A model generated the notes under the pieces. That model had not been told where the DNA came from. It worked only from the letters and a program-made list of their open reading frames with translations, and did not search any database. From Gemmatimonadota bacterium (GTDB taxonomy: Bacteria; Latescibacterota; UBA2968; UBA8231), in the NCBI GenBank assembly GCA_038153405.1, contig JAYOYH010000025.1:36416-62640 (forward strand): 26,225 nt of DNA, given 5' to 3'. The translations under genes and the position numbers were made by a program. Shown here one piece after another: positions 12,001 through 17,835 of the stretch; the first letter of the stretch is position 1; every line of letters begins with the position of its first letter.

Positions 12001-12451
12001 CTTTTTTCAGGTGCAGAGAAGCCAGTTCCATGGCGTGCGGTGGAATGATAGGCGAGAGCAGGGCGGCAGCCGGGGCGACGACGATCGAGGCTTCTCGACT
12101 TTGCAGGCGCATGGCCGCTTCGACGCGCAGCCCGGTAATCTCGACGTCGGGAGAGCGCTTGTCATACAGGTCGGCATCCCAAGCGGGCAGATAGCGAACG
12201 ACCTCGCTGCCGGCGATGGCCTGTAGGTCGTCGCGCCACTGTTCGGCGCGATCTTCGTCGGCTGCTACCAGCAGCACGGTGCGCTCGAGCGTGCGCTGGA
12301 GATGTATCAGTAGAAAGGCGGCCAGCGCGTTGGGTAGACCGCCGAGCAAGACCTCGCGCTCACCGCTGCGCAGGCGCGAAACAACGGCGTTAAAGCTGGG
12401 CGTCTGCGCCGTTTGGCGCGCCAGCACATCGAGGGTGTGGGCGGGGTCCAT
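9050..12451 (-). CDS. mfd: Transcription-repair coupling factor
   Basis: 1133 aa with GQFSVRGGILDVYP, GDFVVHVDHGIGRY, MDRLVCGDVGYGKTEVA, DEEQRFGV, TATPIPRTL, QIRGRVGRS, RDMEIRGAGN. Confidence 0.99.
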   Translation of the reverse strand: MDPAHTLDVLARQTAQTPSFNAVVSRLRSGEREVLLGGLPNALAAFLLIHLQRTLERTVLLVAADEDRAEQWRDDLQAIAGSEVVRYLPAWDADLYDKRSPDVEITGLRVEAAMRLQSREASIVVAPAAALLSPIIPPHAMELASLHLKKGDEQPPDDIASHLIDCGFERVSTVDGLGQFSVRGGILDVYPFASEYPFRIEFFGDEIESIRLFDVSTQRSRGHCEEARIPPASEVVLCSPFYEDYLQRLAAGKGHDRALEALRDQFELGTSLEGVESYMALLYGRDGGLFEYLDDPLVFCEEEEDVYAEVDKAAARPQKEYERHGERDDLVPPDELMRDAAWLRDRLSQYANLRPAPLGRGGDAVQFNASDARAYEGEVALLRKEIDRFTEQDYAIYMRCETQGQNSRLQEMFADWPDIHFGLGTLHRGFTFPEAHLVLLNDHELFSRQKRRFRYRKFRSAAPLPNHAALQRGDFVVHVDHGIGRYSGIKRLSLGGREHDCLTVTYHGADRLFVPVEQLDRLRKYSDAEGDVPTLSRLGGTAWEKLKERTREEIFKMASELVQLYAERKALPGFRFSTDSAMQQQLEATFPFQETPDQLRTMEEVRTDMESPHPMDRLVCGDVGYGKTEVAVRAAFKAVCDQKQVAVLVPTTILAEQHYQTFRERMAHAPVRVEALSRFRTAKEQKQVIEAVKSGGVDILIGTHRMLSKDVKFRDLGLLIVDEEQRFGVRHKEKLKQLKRLVDVLALTATPIPRTLHMSLMGSRDMSIINTPPQDRLPIHTEIIAFDEARITEAIHREVERGGQVYFVHNRIQPLHRLCEYLQELLPHVRFAVAHGQMAPRQLEEIMMDFMEKKYDCLVSTMIIESGIDIPSVNTILVNRADTIGLSQLYQIRGRVGRSNERAYAYLLVPKGKKLPKKSRMRLRAIEEFSDLGSGFNIAMRDMEIRGAGNLVGAQQHGFIAAVGFDLYCRLLDEAMRELKGESTPDHPEPDVKIAVSAYISDEYVPNADQKMEFYQRLADAQRIVELFEIREEMEDRFGRMPEPTRSLMYIMEIKLMARQIGLEKVQLEKNRFVMAFPQERQITPGDIQQIVEKCSFPLEFDLGERLHISLQVEGRDEIERLEKAHEALGEIL

Positions 12452-12518
12452 GAGGATAAAGTCTGACGGTAATTTCCGCGTTGGGAAAGGTCGATTAACG
12501 GTCGGCTATAATCGGCGT

Positions 12519-12547
12519 AAAATACGTATTATTAATATTTTCGGCAA
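12519..12547 (-). promoter_or_regulatory. Putative sigma70-type promoter for the mfd run
   Basis: Minus strand TTGCCG (12547-12542), 17 nt, TATTTT (12524-12519), in an AT-rich patch about 70 nt upstream of mfd. Confidence 0.4.
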
Positions 12548-12563
12548 GAAATCGAAGCAGACC

Positions 12564-12860
12564 CTAACCCGCTCGAGCGCCCTCTGCCCGCACGGCTTGG
12601 GCCCGCAGTTCAATCGCTTGGCGATCGAGCGATTTGAGCTCGCGGCGCGTCATCCAGAACAGGTAGAGAAAGAGCCCTGTCACGATCAGCAGCATGAAAA
12701 TCATGGACAGTAGAATGGGCAGGTCTTCGTGCCCGAGCAGGACGATGCCGGCGCAGCAGACCAGCCATGCGATACCTGTGCACATGCAGAGGATGTGGCG
12801 AAAACGCTTCCACTGGGAGCGCATCCACACTATTTGTCGTAGATCGATGGACATACCCAC
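12564..12860 (-). CDS. Small hypothetical membrane protein (2 TM helices + charged C-terminal helix)
   Basis: Hydrophobic segments ILCMCTGIAWLVCCAGIVLL and ILLSMIFMLLIVTGLFLYLFW, then RRELKSLDRQAIELRAQA. Start may be the ATG at 12854. Confidence 0.65.
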   Translation of the reverse strand: MGMSIDLRQIVWMRSQWKRFRHILCMCTGIAWLVCCAGIVLLGHEDLPILLSMIFMLLIVTGLFLYLFWMTRRELKSLDRQAIELRAQAVRAEGARAG

Positions 12861-13066
12861 TAAGAACGATGTTCAACGCTGAGGCGACAACAGGTCTGCA
12901 ATTTTGCAGGCGCGTTTACACCATCGTGCGAATCGGTGCGAGGCGTGTTGTAGTTCTGTGCCATTCCAATTGGTTTTCGCTCAGAGAATAATTTATATTT
13001 TTTCGGCGTTGCGCTACATACCACAAGACAATCCGAACGACTATTGGCTGCGGAAAGGCTGTCTCC

Positions 13067-14317
13067 ATGAAGATTGTACTTGCCGAGGACTCCACTACGA
13101 TGCGCAAGATTCTGGTGAAGATCCTCAATAAACTGGGCTATAGTAACGTGTGCGAAGCGGAGGACGGCGCCCAAGCGTTGAAGCAGCTGTCGGAAGCGTC
13201 TTTTGATCTGCTGATCACCGATTGGGATATGCCTAGGATGTCGGGTTTACAGCTAATCAAGGAACTGCGTGCCAATCCGGATACCGTCGATGTTCCCATC
13301 ATTGTGTCCACGTCGCGCTCGGGGCAGGACGAAGTCATAGAGGCGATGGATGCCGGCGCCAACGATTTCATATCCAAACCGTTTAACGACGTGGAGTTAC
13401 AGGCCAAGATAGAGTCCGTCGTAAAATCGGTAAACGTCTTGATTGCCGAAGATTCAACGTCTATGATGGGCGTTGTCAAAAAGATGTTGGGAGATATGGG
13501 CTATTGCAACGTCTATGAAGCCTACGACGGCGCAAAGGCGTGGGAACTGCTGTGCGAAGGGCGTTTTGACCTGCTGATCACCGATTGGAACATGCCCAAT
13601 ATGTCGGGCTTGGAGCTAGTGGAACACGTGCGCGCCGATCCAGATATGGCCGATATGCCGATTATTATGTCGACGTCGCGCAGCAACCACGAGGACGTTA
13701 TCGAAGCGATGAAGTCGGGCGTGACCAATTACGTTTCCAAACCGTTTAAACCAAGCCAGCTAAGAGACAAGATCGCTCAAGTCATGCGCGGACAGGCTAA
13801 TAGGAAAATCAAGCAGCGGTCTTTTTCAGTCGACGCTATGCTCAGGGGATCGGCTCGTGATATGCTGTATGATCGCAGCTTTCCCTTCGTGCTCATGGTG
13901 GAAAAGAGCATCGAGTCGGCAGAGCTGCACCGCCCGACCAACGAGCGCTCCGTCGGTCTTCTCAGGACGAAAATTCAGGCCTTGGAAATAGCCAATAGCG
14001 AAATTCGCGGCGATGTGAGCTATGTGCTGGCCGATAATACGCGGGACGTTCTGCGCATAGTAGACGTCCACCGCGACGATATTCGGTTAATCATCATATG
14101 CAATGATAGGCCCGGTGGCGGCGTGACCTTAGCAAACCAAATCCTGCGCAACCACGGTGGTCGCTGCGACGTGTTGTTGTTTGTCGATTCAATTGCTAAG
14201 TTCCCCGTTGAACAGCGCGAGGTGATGAGCCATATGGGTATCAAGCTAGTTGAGAACAGACGCTGTACGCCTAGGGAGATGGACAAGCTATTTCGGGAAT
14301 GCGTATTCTCGATTTGA
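13067..14317 (+). CDS. Response regulator: two tandem CheY-like receiver domains plus C-terminal receiver-like domain X
   Basis: REC1: KIVLAEDS..DLLITDWDMPRMSG..STSRS..FISKPF. REC2: NVLIAEDS..DLLITDWNMPNMSG..STSRS..YVSKPF. No HTH or enzymatic output recognised. Confidence 0.9.
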   Translation: MKIVLAEDSTTMRKILVKILNKLGYSNVCEAEDGAQALKQLSEASFDLLITDWDMPRMSGLQLIKELRANPDTVDVPIIVSTSRSGQDEVIEAMDAGANDFISKPFNDVELQAKIESVVKSVNVLIAEDSTSMMGVVKKMLGDMGYCNVYEAYDGAKAWELLCEGRFDLLITDWNMPNMSGLELVEHVRADPDMADMPIIMSTSRSNHEDVIEAMKSGVTNYVSKPFKPSQLRDKIAQVMRGQANRKIKQRSFSVDAMLRGSARDMLYDRSFPFVLMVEKSIESAELHRPTNERSVGLLRTKIQALEIANSEIRGDVSYVLADNTRDVLRIVDVHRDDIRLIIICNDRPGGGVTLANQILRNHGGRCDVLLFVDSIAKFPVEQREVMSHMGIKLVENRRCTPREMDKLFRECVFSI

Positions 14318-14455
14318 GAGTCTTCCCTAGGTGCAATGCGCGGTTGTTTTTTCCCTAACAAATTGTTTTTATCTAAGGTCCTTTGAACGCGAATGCCGAT
14401 AGCGCTGCACAGAGCAAAGAATCAGCCTAGCTTGCCATTTTTGTAGAAAGCACGA

Positions 14456-14483
14456 TTGACCTCGCGCAGTCAAGCCCGATAAT
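14456..14483 (+). promoter_or_regulatory. Putative promoter overlapping a TTGAC-N8-GTCAA palindrome
   Basis: TTGACC (14456-14461), 16 nt, GATAAT (14478-14483). TTGAC (14456-14460) and GTCAA (14469-14473) form an inverted repeat. Confidence 0.35.
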
Positions 14484-14624
14484 TAGGATGACGCTCGGTT
14501 GTTGCTCCGCGAGGACGTATTTAGCACATGCGTCTCAGCATATACACATCCTTCCGCGCAAGGACAACGGTCTTGAGTCTGCAACAGTCGATATTTCGCA
14601 CTGCGTTTTTCGAGGTTTCTTGAT

Positions 14625-16736
14625 ATGAAGATCATGATTGTCGAAGACTCTACTTCTATGCGCAAAGTCCTCAACACAATGCTGCGTGGTTTGGGATACG
14701 CCGAGGTGTATGAAGCAGAGGACGGCGTCGAGGCGTGGGAGCATCTGTGCGATGGTGGCTTTGACTTGCTGATATCCGACTGGAATATGCCCAATATGTC
14801 GGGCTTAGAACTGCTAGAAAAAGTGCGTGCCGAACCGAAGACGGCGGAGTTGCCGGTTATCATGGCCACGTCGCGCACCGAAAAAGAAGACGTCATTAAG
14901 GCCATGAAAGCCGGTGCCAATAACTACATATCAAAGCCCTTTAACTCTTCTCAGCTCAAGGCAAAAATAGACAGAGTCATGCAGCTGACGACGGACCGAA
15001 AAGCGGAGCAAGAAGCACAGAAATTTGAGGTGATGCTCAACAGTTCGGCCAACGTGGAGGTTATGACACAGGAGCGCGTGCCCTTTGTCCTAATCGTCGA
15101 GAAGAGCATCGATCCAGTTGAGCTTAAACGCCCTGAACACAAAGAGACGGCGCGCCTGCTATCAATGAAGGTTGCGGCTTTTGAGGCCGTCAACGACCAA
15201 CTGGCCGATGGCAAGGTGCGCTATGTGCTGGAAGATGATACGCAGAGGGCGATGCGTCTGGTGCGCGCGCGCCGAGAGTCCATGCGCCTGCTCATCGTTC
15301 CCAACAATATTTCCGGCGGAGGCATAACGCTGGCCCGACTGGTCTTGCTCAACCACAAAGCCGACTGCAAAGTCTGTTTGATCGTCGATACGATGTTTGA
15401 GTTTTCGGTCACCGAGCGCAGTACGATGAGCAAAATGGGCGTCGTCCTGCTGGAAAGGGGCAAGCTCAACCCCCGTTCGCTGGAGCAGTTGTATCGCGAA
15501 AATGCCTTTTTGCCAGGTTCAACTGCGCCCGACACACCCGCTGCAGCGAGGGAGGCCACTCGGGTATCTGCCGGAGAAAATGCCTGGGATCAGGGTGGCT
15601 TCAGTTCGGATAACACCGTTTCGGAAAAGAAGTCTCCGAGCCTGTCAAGCGGCGATATGCGGCATGACACCCGACAGCTAGAAGCAGACATGGGGCGCAA
15701 TAGCGAGCTTCCAAGCGCGCCCTTGTTTTACGACCGGGTCCAAAAGATAGCGCGCGACCTTTCTGCCGATTCGATGTATTGGGTTGACGCCGTAGAGAGC
15801 GACCCGTGCTGTGAAGCCATGGTCATTGATAGGGCGCGGGCGTCGGTCCGCGGTGCACGCGACAAAGTCGAAGACATTAAGCGAGCAGTAGAACTGCTTG
15901 GCAAAGAGGCCGTTCGCGATATTGCCGCTGCTGCCGCACTAAACGAACCGTTGGAAGCTGCATTCGACGAGCGGTCCACTGTTCAGAGCTTCTGGCGTCA
16001 CAGCGTAAGTGCCGGATTCACCGCGCGCATGCTGATGATGCCCTTCGATGGTAGGAAGTTGGGCGAGTACCAGCAGCGCCTGTTTGATGAGTGGAGTCCC
16101 GAGGGACAGGTCGTGGCCATGCTAAAGCAGTTCAATATCTCGAGCCGCTTTGCGCTCGCCGATGGTGAAGTGCCCTTTGTCGGTGGCCTGATGCACGACA
16201 TGGGGCATGTCGCTGTCGCCAGCACGTACCCCGAGCAATTTGACAAGGTGCTGAGCTATATTAACGCTCAAGAGTACAAGATTTCCGTACACGCCGCCGA
16301 GATGGAGATTGCCCCGCGGTCTAACCACGCACTGGCTGGGACGATTATGGCGCACAATTGGGAGATGGGACAGCCGGTAGAAAACGCGATCCGGACCCAC
16401 CACGATCCCGAACCCGAAGATGAGTTCTCACTGCTGATCAGTCTGGCCGACTTTATTGCAGGAGCGGCGGATCCTTTTCCTCAAGACGCTCCGTATCCGC
16501 ACGTGCTGGTCGTCGAGAGCTTAGCTGGGGCGATGAATCCCATTGTCGAATTAGACGACGAAGATCGCGAAGCGCTGATGGCGCACTTCGTCCCCACGGC
16601 CGTGCTGGAACACATCAATACCAGTCTAGACCGAGTGCTTGCGCTGGCTGCGATCATGGCACCGGGCATCAAGCGAATGACGGCCCGTTTTGTGCGCAGC
16701 ATGGCAACCGCAGCGACCAAGCGCAGCATTTCCTGA
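14625..16736 (+). CDS. Response regulator: CheY-like receiver + domain X + linker + HDOD domain
   Basis: REC: KIMIVEDS..DWNMPNMSG..ATSRT..YISKPF. HDOD: ELPSAP, ESDP, AVELLG, FWRHSV, GLMHDMG, NHALAG..AHNW, AIRTHHDP, LADFIA. Confidence 0.9.
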   Translation: MKIMIVEDSTSMRKVLNTMLRGLGYAEVYEAEDGVEAWEHLCDGGFDLLISDWNMPNMSGLELLEKVRAEPKTAELPVIMATSRTEKEDVIKAMKAGANNYISKPFNSSQLKAKIDRVMQLTTDRKAEQEAQKFEVMLNSSANVEVMTQERVPFVLIVEKSIDPVELKRPEHKETARLLSMKVAAFEAVNDQLADGKVRYVLEDDTQRAMRLVRARRESMRLLIVPNNISGGGITLARLVLLNHKADCKVCLIVDTMFEFSVTERSTMSKMGVVLLERGKLNPRSLEQLYRENAFLPGSTAPDTPAAAREATRVSAGENAWDQGGFSSDNTVSEKKSPSLSSGDMRHDTRQLEADMGRNSELPSAPLFYDRVQKIARDLSADSMYWVDAVESDPCCEAMVIDRARASVRGARDKVEDIKRAVELLGKEAVRDIAAAAALNEPLEAAFDERSTVQSFWRHSVSAGFTARMLMMPFDGRKLGEYQQRLFDEWSPEGQVVAMLKQFNISSRFALADGEVPFVGGLMHDMGHVAVASTYPEQFDKVLSYINAQEYKISVHAAEMEIAPRSNHALAGTIMAHNWEMGQPVENAIRTHHDPEPEDEFSLLISLADFIAGAADPFPQDAPYPHVLVVESLAGAMNPIVELDDEDREALMAHFVPTAVLEHINTSLDRVLALAAIMAPGIKRMTARFVRSMATAATKRSIS

Positions 16737-16755
16737 CCCCATCCCTACAGCCGTT

Positions 16756-17835
16756 TTAAATTCGCCATTCCCCCCCGTTGCGCTGGTATTTTTTCACCGC
16801 ATACATGTCGAGTTCGCCGCCCAGACCCGGTCCGGTTGGCACGGCGATGCGCTCGCCCCTGCGCTCGGGCATCTGCACGACGAAGTCGTCCACGTGCAGC
16901 GGTGTCGACAATATATCGTGCGGTACCGTAGCCCCATCGGCGACGGCGGTGGCGTGAATATATGTCAAATCGAGAATGCCCAGATCGACGCCCGATCCAT
17001 GCCAGCACGGCTTGTCGGCGGTGCCAGCCGCATCGACCATGCGCACAAATTCGACCATGGAACCGGGTGAACAGTTGAAGATGTCGGCTGCGTCGGCGGC
17101 CAGTGCCTGGATGACGGCGTGCGTCGAGCCCAAGTGCAGAGCGATTTTCGCGCCGGTTTCCCCGCGCAGCTTTTTGTATAAATCGAGTCGATCTTTGGGC
17201 AGCGGATCTTCGATGCACAGCACGTTTAAATCGGCACAGCGGCGCGCCAGTTGCTCCACTTCGTCGTAGCTGTCGTAGCGCTGCATGGCATCGACGATAA
17301 AGTGCAGATCGGGTGCCACTTCGAGCATGCGCTTCAGGCGATCGACTACGTCCATGCCGTGCATCACCTTGATTTTGAGGCAGGAATAGCCGCCTTGGCG
17401 GGCGGCATCGGCAGCGGCTGGCGAATACTCGGGGCTTTGTAAGCCGGCCCAGTAGGAACAGACAACTTCGTCGCGACAGTAGCCACCGAGCAGTTCGCCG
17501 ACGCGCATAGAGCGCATGCGTCCAACCAGGTCGAAGACGGCCGTTTCCACGCAGCGATACGCGTTGCTTCCGCTGCTGGCTATGGGTATACGGCGTAGAT
17601 TGAGCGCGAGCGGGTTGGCGCCCAACAGGCTGCGGCATGCGGTCTCTAAGTCACCCAAAGCCGTGCCGCGCGGCGTTTCGCCGACGCCGTAGTGGCCGTC
17701 TTCCGCGTGCAGGCGGATCAGCAGCTTGGGGACTAGATCCCAGCGCTCGTGTACCTCAGCATATTCGGGGCTGTTGACCATTTCTTGGTGAACAAACTGA
17801 TCGACTTCCCACCATTCAATTCGATCTATTTTCAC
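16756..17835 (-). CDS. Enolase superfamily (mandelate racemase/muconate lactonising enzyme-like) protein
   Basis: DGHYGVGE, ETAVFDLVGR..VGELLGG, LKIK, IVDAMQ, IEDP, VPTGPGLG. GTG start at 17835 with GGAGG RBS, overlapping the upstream TGA (GTGA). Confidence 0.9.
   Translation of the reverse strand: MKIDRIEWWEVDQFVHQEMVNSPEYAEVHERWDLVPKLLIRLHAEDGHYGVGETPRGTALGDLETACRSLLGANPLALNLRRIPIASSGSNAYRCVETAVFDLVGRMRSMRVGELLGGYCRDEVVCSYWAGLQSPEYSPAAADAARQGGYSCLKIKVMHGMDVVDRLKRMLEVAPDLHFIVDAMQRYDSYDEVEQLARRCADLNVLCIEDPLPKDRLDLYKKLRGETGAKIALHLGSTHAVIQALAADAADIFNCSPGSMVEFVRMVDAAGTADKPCWHGSGVDLGILDLTYIHATAVADGATVPHDILSTPLHVDDFVVQMPERRGERIAVPTGPGLGGELDMYAVKKYQRNGGEWRI

Follow-up and report, generated by a model that had tools for sequence, protein, structure and literature searches.

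What can two neighboring genes for multireceiver proteins contribute to a cell when the genes around them are housekeeping and metabolic? This question is raised by gene 1 and gene 2, which lie on the same strand 307 bp apart in a 26,225-nucleotide stretch (the window) of contig JAYOYH010000025.1 of assembly GCA_038153405.1, the genome of a Latescibacterota bacterium (here G000, 93% complete; its contigs carry C-numbers, with C25, at 62.6 kb, being that of the window). Gene 1 encodes two receivers (REC) followed by a domain labeled X, and gene 2 encodes one receiver, X, and an HDOD domain. An earlier note on this DNA described an adjacent, co-oriented pair with three complete CheY-class receivers, a common X, and a single HDOD in gene 2, all of which is confirmed by the open reading frames (ORFs), Pfam, and the active-site residues. 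Pfam assigns two Response_reg stretches to gene 1 and a single one, together with HDOD, to gene 2, which also supports the statement that gene 1 has no output domain. The larger proposals, that X is an unnamed domain and that the two genes form a module pairing through X, are not supported. X is, by its predicted (beta-alpha)5 receiver fold, an aspartate-less pseudo-receiver rather than a novel domain, and the two genes most likely arose by duplication within the genus. The REC-pseudoREC-HDOD architecture of gene 2 recurs across one family of probable Latescibacterota, in flagellated genomes only (21 of 21).

All three canonical receivers retain the five active-site residues (alignment A3), score above the PF00072 cutoff, and share 52 to 61% pairwise identity. 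Their best NCBIfam match is the chemotaxis protein CheY (PRK10610; 122 bits for gene 2, below the cutoff of 189, and 201.7 bits for gene 1, summed over two domains), and the model of the gene 2 receiver matches solved CheY structures at 42 to 45% identity with a root mean square deviation (rmsd) of mostly 0.8 to 0.9 Å. Both proteins are unlike classic CheY in being multidomain orphans rather than single-domain members of a che operon; the operon CheY of this genome is encoded on C17. The second receiver and X of gene 1 together are 48% identical to the receiver and X of gene 2 over 295 amino acids (aa) (E = 2e-96). In alignment A2, the phospho-Asp of the first receiver is also gone from 4 of 25 REC-X-HDOD homologues (three with Asn, one with Glu), so that the family includes fully phosphorylation-independent members.

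The X domains of the two genes are 42% identical, far above chance. Neither has a Pfam match, no Pfam family is matched by more than one of 41 homologues, and the best match among PDB sequences has an E value of 0.55. In an AlphaFold2 model based on the 41 homologues (pLDDT 91), five strands and five helices alternate as they do in receivers, and a long alpha-1 is preceded by one short additional helix. Foldseek searches with this model gave 11 matches at E ≤ 0.001, and all 10 among the matches listed are receiver or response regulator structures; structural realignment with VIA-align over the Foldseek top 1000 gave a Z of 14.5 for the FleR receiver (rmsd 2.6 Å, 118 residues), with ComE and Spo0F tied. 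The ESM Atlas places X with the decarboxylase N-terminal domain PF03709, which has a CheY-like fold, and with a cluster that is 22% Response_reg. Profile-profile comparison of X with true receivers (hhalign) sets the alignment register; at a probability of 9% and an E value of 0.0035 the match is weak, and it counts against the assignment. However, three pseudo-receiver-HDOD proteins of a sister family (f2) supply a sequence bridge, as the same stretch in each matches both the X profile, at E values of 4e-10 to 1e-8, and a receiver profile, at 3e-8 to 9e-7, and they also have a weak PF00072 match in Pfam.

In the hhalign register, the phospho-Asp column of X holds Asp in none of the 41 members and Ser in 32. 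Among the other active-site positions, the second acid is mostly lost, Thr or Ser is found in none of the 41, and Arg mostly stands in for the Lys. What the family does retain is the first acid, in 39 of 41 members, together with three arginines, in 38, 37, and 34 members; the X domain of gene 1 has Asn in place of the first and third of these arginines. A receiver-type model combined with the loss of the phospho-Asp fits the definition of an aspartate-less pseudo-receiver (PsR) given in excerpts of PMC12632262. The count of three receivers in the earlier note therefore becomes five receiver-fold domains across the two proteins, X being a degenerate receiver. X shares the (beta-alpha)5 fold without phospho-Asp with the aspartate-less receiver (ALR) and PsR domains described in parts of PMC4395418 and PMC12632262, and it differs from them in being too diverged for PF00072, in forming its own small, lineage-restricted family, and in having mostly Ser at the Asp position. 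Recognition by the PF00072 profile, on which the operational ALR definition in PMC4395418 depends, was found for none of the 41 members; other PsR types likewise fall outside PF00072, according to the same portion of PMC12632262. Fusions of ALR domains to HDOD are listed as common, with their role unknown, in the section of PMC4395418 concerned. A domain lacking a Pfam family thus gains an identity, and pseudo-receivers can evidently hide beneath profile thresholds.

The output domain of gene 2 is recognized by PF08668 at 94.5 bits, against a cutoff of 22.9. The six His and Asp residues listed in Table 1 are invariant in all 26 aligned full-length proteins and align to His and Asp residues of Geobacter 3HC1, the ligands being identified by alignment and not from coordinates; 3HC1 holds two irons with five His and one Asp, as stated in an excerpt of PMC12075610. 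Because all six putative ligands are kept, the HDOD of gene 2 appears to be of the metal-binding type, unlike SadB or GsmR, with a putative two-metal site, and the description of HDOD domains as often noncatalytic fits it poorly. The likeness to 3HC1, a 305-aa HDOD protein, is limited to this site; the family of gene 2 has an insertion within HDOD as well as N-terminal regulatory domains. An HD-GYP (RpfG-type) phosphodiesterase of cyclic di-GMP (c-di-GMP) was considered and rejected, as gene 2 has no GYP tripeptide and Pfam assigns HDOD with HD below the cutoff. We know of no substrate for 3HC1 or for HDOD domains of the gene 2 type. c-di-GMP is not the favored candidate, and the domain may hydrolyze a phosphoester or only bind a partner.

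Receiver control of HDOD is shared with the REC-HDOD regulators Xanthomonas GsmR and Desulfovibrio DVU0330, as portrayed in parts of PMC4114195 and PMC11004494; gene 2 has an additional pseudo-receiver between REC and HDOD. In those parts, GsmR is tied to flagellar gene expression and is without active-site His or any activity, whereas DVU0330, which keeps the HD residues as gene 2 does, has weak activity on bis(p-nitrophenyl) phosphate and none on c-di-GMP (excerpt of PMC4114195). HDOD proteins influence motility in Xanthomonas, Campylobacter, and Pseudomonas, according to the passages of PMC11004494.

A single-query search finds X in 21 of 61 related genomes; a profile search across 168 genomes of the phylum finds it in 41, with strong matches restricted to one family (f1). 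Against 1.84 billion representative sequences, the profile gave 93 hits, a few of which are repetitive and spurious. The 40 genomic regions that were fetched (L-numbers) hold 43 of the 49 single-query matches. These 43 X genes comprise 25 complete and 2 frameshifted REC-X-HDOD genes, 8 REC-X-FKBP-like genes (FKBP confirmed by Pfam in three of the four scanned), 6 REC-X genes (three broken or cut), and 2 REC-REC-X genes. HDOD was found in 29 of the 68 representatives scanned, FKBP in 8, and two receivers in none, and there is one further REC-REC-X sequence on record, 72% identical to gene 1 and without genomic context. The FKBP fusions (L050:6078-7358, L052, L053:6470-7729 on the minus strand, L057:6444-7760, L058, L051, L059, and L056) sit upstream of chemoreceptor/CheA operons or opposite hybrid kinases. 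A phospho-regulated peptidyl-prolyl isomerase linked to chemotaxis arrays would be unusual.

REC-REC-X adjoins REC-X-HDOD in three of the eight genus genomes (G000 and its relatives G001 and G002) and nowhere else searched, each time at the same site beside mfd, and REC-REC-X is absent beside 23 of the 25 complete REC-X-HDOD genes. The neighborhood check thus does not bear out a conserved two-gene module. Copy number at the site varies. G001 has three tandem copies, and a 117-bp remnant of its middle gene persists between gene 1 and gene 2 of the window. In G006 (94% complete) nothing lies between the small membrane gene upstream of mfd and the enolase-like gene, G005 has other genes there, G004 begins directly with a gene 2-like sequence cut by the contig end, and G003 and G007 have a different neighborhood and no X. 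A quick maximum-likelihood tree, built from 67 REC-X rows without bootstrap and rooted at the midpoint, groups the eight tandem-array rows in one clade (Shimodaira-Hasegawa-like approximate likelihood ratio test, 99), sister to the single REC-X-HDOD of G011. The variable copy number of the array and its single clade together explain the adjacency of the two genes by tandem duplication. The simplest history within the genus is that a REC-X-HDOD gene was duplicated and that one copy lost HDOD and gained a second receiver. Elsewhere in G000, 80 codons at C6:8731-8970 are all that remains of a second REC-X-HDOD paralogue, and contigs C28 and C71 are separated by an assembly gap into which the locus of a third, CheR-linked paralogue (about 5 kb) falls. 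G011 has a frameshifted REC-X gene of another clade (L060:832-1605), which also adjoins this small membrane gene as well as mfd and is oriented opposite to the window array.

Both genes are under purifying selection in G000, G001, and G002. The ratios of nonsynonymous to synonymous substitution rates (dN/dS) against G001 given in Table 1 fall within the range of four control genes (0.05 to 0.17). By domain, dN/dS of gene 1 is 0.07 to 0.16 in all three domains against G001 and 0.23 to 0.24 in the two receivers against G002, with the four controls at 0.05 to 0.19. Pseudogene status is rejected on these values. Divergence is nevertheless faster than that of the neighbors, with gene 1 and gene 2 having 47% and 51% identity to their G002 orthologues and the orthologous X domains 42 to 43%, against 86% for mfd. 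The first receiver of gene 1 evolves faster than the receiver of gene 2 (dN/dS of 0.12 versus 0.03). The G+C content of third codon positions is 0.66 at the pair and 0.71 to 0.78 in four neighboring genes. A recent foreign origin was rejected as the cause of the low value, as homologues are restricted to this lineage and synteny at the locus extends to G001 and G002.

The genomic company of the family points to motility. Flagellin is present in all 21 X-positive genomes among the 61, and X is found in none of the 27 flagellin-negative genomes and in 15 of the 18 that are CheW positive. As the X-positive genomes are kin, these associations are suggestive and not a statistical test. A CheR gene lies downstream of 7 of the 25 complete REC-X-HDOD genes, sometimes with a PilZ gene between them, and six of these CheR genes have a CheZ-like tail in view. 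The ESM Atlas assigns this 150-aa tail to CheZ (0.92, 194 shared features), and the tail contains a DxxxQ motif, the catalytic motif of CheZ; the Atlas alone placed it, with no recognition by Pfam PF04344 and no match among PDB sequences. In three genus members the same locus encodes a stand-alone CheY with 48% identity to the gene 2 receiver. Furthermore, receptor-type genes lie just downstream of four REC-X-FKBP genes, with CheA in view at three of these loci, and chemotaxis genes are direct neighbors of X genes at 11 loci. The flagellin distribution and the CheR-linked loci make the link to motility proposed in the earlier note likely for the gene 1/gene 2 locus.

The CheR-CheZ-like fusion genes sit directly downstream of canonical REC-X-HDOD genes (L031:2099-3460 on the minus strand, L034:8708-10054, L039:3979-5364 and L040:710-2095 on the minus strand, L027:4556-5968, and L089), and the fusion is decayed in L036. 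A literature search for such a fusion by name returned only E. coli papers, judged by title. Between the stand-alone CheY and the fusion gene there is a 397-aa protein without a Pfam hit that is 81% identical across three genomes (L031:877-2067, L034:10098-11288 on the minus strand, and L036:3502-4698).

The reading that we favor, tentatively and at a little less than an even chance, is that gene 2 is a PleD-like phospho-switch fed by CheA and that gene 1 is a tandem-duplicated copy without output that serves as a phosphate sink for the same kinase. Beyond the domain content itself, we infer a chain of events in which a kinase, most likely CheA, would phosphorylate D52 of gene 2; the phosphorylated receiver would repack against X, and X would pass the change to HDOD. 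With its predicted two-metal site, HDOD would then act on a phosphoester or a protein partner that affects flagellar motility. Gene 1, which lacks an output and whose two phosphorylatable receivers belong to the class of the gene 2 receiver, would compete with gene 2 for this phosphate, and the two proteins would not need to pair physically. A sink is the most plausible role for gene 1. CheY phosphate sinks such as Sinorhizobium CheY1 are single-domain proteins encoded in chemotaxis operons. Gene 1 would resemble them as an output-less CheY-class receiver protein competing for CheA phosphate, and it differs in having two receivers plus a pseudo-receiver and an orphan location. G000 encodes chemotaxis machinery, with a cheA-W-R-D-Y-X-B operon on C17, CheV, and nine flagellin hits. 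Its CheA (C17:68441-71434, 998 aa) has two Hpt domains, which could serve separate receivers.

The closest counterpart of gene 2 in layout is PleD of Caulobacter (PDB 2V0N), which has the same order of receiver, pseudo-receiver, and output. Activated PleD is also the top Foldseek hit of the full-length gene 2 model (E = 1.2e-8, 292 columns). In PleD, as excerpts of PMC12632262 describe it, phosphorylation of the receiver alters its contact with the PsR and drives dimerization. Gene 2 differs in having HDOD in place of GGDEF, a CheY-class receiver, and an X domain that is invisible to PF00072 and has a long alpha-1 with an extra short helix before it.

Several observations weigh against this reading. 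The modeled arrangement of REC and X deviates from PleD by an rmsd of 18 Å over the 292 columns in a model with a pTM of 0.55, so that the arrangement is uncertain and only the domain order is certainly common to the two proteins. The HDOD of gene 2 is itself divergent: its identity to 23 canonical homologues is 32%, compared with 48% for those homologues with one another, and both the family-conserved Ser-Pro-x-Tyr-Gly-Phe motif and the Lys following the HD motif are replaced. No CheW hit was found in 6 of the 21 X-positive genomes; two of these, G006 and G030 (93% complete), nonetheless encode a full REC-X-HDOD with its phospho-Asp, which indicates that the family does not strictly depend on CheA. 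G000 itself has 33 HisKA hits, and at three loci (L056 to L058) homologues lie beside or facing hybrid kinases with Hpt domains. Finally, the window copies are divergent and sit in a nonchemotaxis neighborhood, and context derived from their paralogues may therefore not apply to them.

Some of these observations bear on the alternative that survives best, though it too is unlikely: the same switch would be served by another donor, either hybrid histidine kinases or an Hpt phosphorelay, and HDOD would affect motility only indirectly. In addition to the genomes without CheW and the three hybrid kinase-Hpt loci, homologues also lie beside GAF or other hybrid kinases, and G000 has six Hpt hits, including three in hybrid kinases on C16, C45, and C48 and one stand-alone Hpt on C30. 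However, the receivers are closest to chemotaxis CheY, that of gene 2 is 48% identical to the stand-alone CheY of the CheR-CheZ-like locus, and chemotaxis genes directly adjoin the family at 11 loci, which argues for CheA. The window itself offers no candidate donor: as the earlier note stated, no kinase, Hpt, or DNA-binding Pfam domain was found among the other main ORFs of the window, and none of the HisKA or Hpt hits of the genome lies on C25, which 14 kinase/Hpt proteins of G000 match through receiver domains only. This supports the description of an orphan, uncharacterized signaling locus.

The model proposed in the earlier note, in which gene 1 would serve gene 2 as a dedicated adaptor or inhibitor by heterodimerizing with it through X, is quite unlikely. 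The two genes are adjacent and co-oriented, and both are maintained by purifying selection in three genomes. PleD-type REC-PsR stems dimerize, according to the portion of PMC12632262 concerned, and an output-less paralogue could therefore poison the dimer. However, duplication explains the adjacency, and conservation does not support pairing through X: the pair is confined to three of eight genus genomes, nearly all complete REC-X-HDOD genes occur without it, and two receivers are found in none of the 68 scanned representatives. The X domain of gene 1 has moreover lost two near-invariant arginines, and orthologous X domains diverge far faster than mfd. Prediction of a complex between aa 1 to 296 of gene 2 and aa 122 to 416 of gene 1 gave an ipSAE of 0.00 in two runs in which controls were not folded, and it was counted neither for nor against binding.

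It is improbable that gene 1 acts apart from gene 2 as a multidomain CheY, binding the flagellar switch or some other target of CheY, with X serving for localization or as a scaffold. Its receivers have the sequence and fold of the CheY class, 6 of the 43 X genes encode REC-X without HDOD, three of these being broken, and other X genes carry an FKBP domain, but G000 has its own operon CheY, and the relatively fast evolution of the first receiver also argues against such a role. The possibility that gene birth and death simply left the extra copy behind without a function is very improbable and largely refuted, as dN/dS of gene 1 is low and both of its active sites are intact, even though a third copy was deleted in the window, a paralogue on C6 has decayed, and the site is empty of X genes in G006 and G005.

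Extended to the flagellated Latescibacterota as a whole, the favored CheA-fed switch would make REC-pseudoREC-HDOD an undescribed side branch of chemotaxis, in which CheA phosphorylates the receiver, the CheR-CheZ fusion resets it, the conserved Arg/Ser surface of X recognizes a nucleotide messenger or other second input, the two-metal HDOD acts as a switchable hydrolase, and output-less duplicates tune the system as sinks or dominant-negative partners. Taken in full this is rather unlikely; if true, it would provide a phospho-switchable handle on HDOD function. All of the parts are known folds, and the family is a lineage-specific variant that is PleD-like in layout and GsmR/DVU0330-like in output and is a member of neither family. 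In the titles and abstract openings searched, which mostly leave out subscription journals, no description of a REC-pseudoREC-HDOD family or of Latescibacterota signaling was found, nor any literature linking Latescibacter, response regulators, and HDOD; the supplementary table of PMC4395418 may list related layouts. The REC-pseudoREC-HDOD family is of more interest than the gene pair, as it offers for assay a switchable HDOD whose putative metal site is complete. What HDOD domains do biochemically and how bacterial pseudo-receivers are regulated are long-standing gaps according to parts of PMC4395418 and PMC12632262. With a CheY switch, a pseudo-receiver, and such an HDOD in one protein, it would be possible to mimic activation in vitro and to assay HDOD with the switch on and off. 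Interest is limited by the lineage being uncultured, by the presence of known folds only, and by the pair in the window being a recent local duplication and not a conserved system.

Table 1. Positions of the two genes, their domains, and the gene remnant within the window
Feature	Position	Strand	Description	Evidence
Gene 1	13067..14317	+	416 aa; REC-REC-pseudoREC(X), no output domain	Intact ORF; Pfam; dN/dS 0.12 vs G001 orthologue
Gene 1 receiver 1 (aa 1-120)	13067..13426	+	Complete active site E7 D8 D52 T82 K104	Sequence; PF00072; alignment A3
Gene 1 receiver 2 (aa 122-241)	13430..13789	+	Complete active site E128 D129 D173 T203 K225	Sequence; NCBIfam; Pfam; alignment A3
Gene 1 domain X, predicted aspartate-less pseudo-receiver	13877..14314	+	Cys345 in phospho-Asp place; two family-conserved Arg replaced by Asn	42% identity to gene 2 X; column counts
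Remnant of deleted third copy (REC-X gene, intact in G001)	14394..14510	+		blastn 73.6% over 121 nt, E 3e-16; tblastn 68% over 25 aa
Gene 2	14625..16736	+	703 aa; REC-pseudoREC(X)-HDOD	Intact ORF; Pfam; dN/dS 0.14 vs G001 orthologue
Gene 2 CheY-class receiver (aa 1-120)	14625..14984	+	E7 D8 D52 T82 K104	Model match to solved CheY structures; dN/dS 0.03
Gene 2 domain X, predicted aspartate-less pseudo-receiver	15069..15518	+	Pro226 in phospho-Asp place	AlphaFold2 pLDDT 91; Foldseek; Z 14.5; hhalign register
Gene 2 HDOD	15708..16469	+	H459 H524 D525 H568 H592 H593 intact, putative two-metal site; elsewhere family-divergent	Pfam; alignment; PDB 3HC1

The flanking genes are groEL, lipB, moaC, argF, surA, mfd, and genes for an enolase-superfamily enzyme and isocitrate dehydrogenase. 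A scan of positions 12400 to 17000 gave four promoter and five terminator sites, no excess over shuffled sequences (3.4 and 4.3), and cotranscription of gene 1 and gene 2 is therefore not shown. Two RNA runs yielded short contigs (150 to 226 nt) over both genes at a depth of 2 to 4 and with small word shares, which is insufficient to show transcription.

G000 has 12 HDOD hits, and flagellated members of the class have up to 26 per genome, whereas nonflagellated members have weak hits only. Four more HDOD proteins of G000 have atypical receiver-like N termini (C84:7259-8980, C26:15498-16880, C6:132362-133741, and C15:69856-71130), and the one on C84 matches the X profile (E = 3e-9). The small membrane gene upstream of mfd (12564-12860, minus strand) encodes a 98-aa protein without a significant Pfam hit, and this protein is conserved at the same site in G001, G002, G004, G005, G006, and G011.

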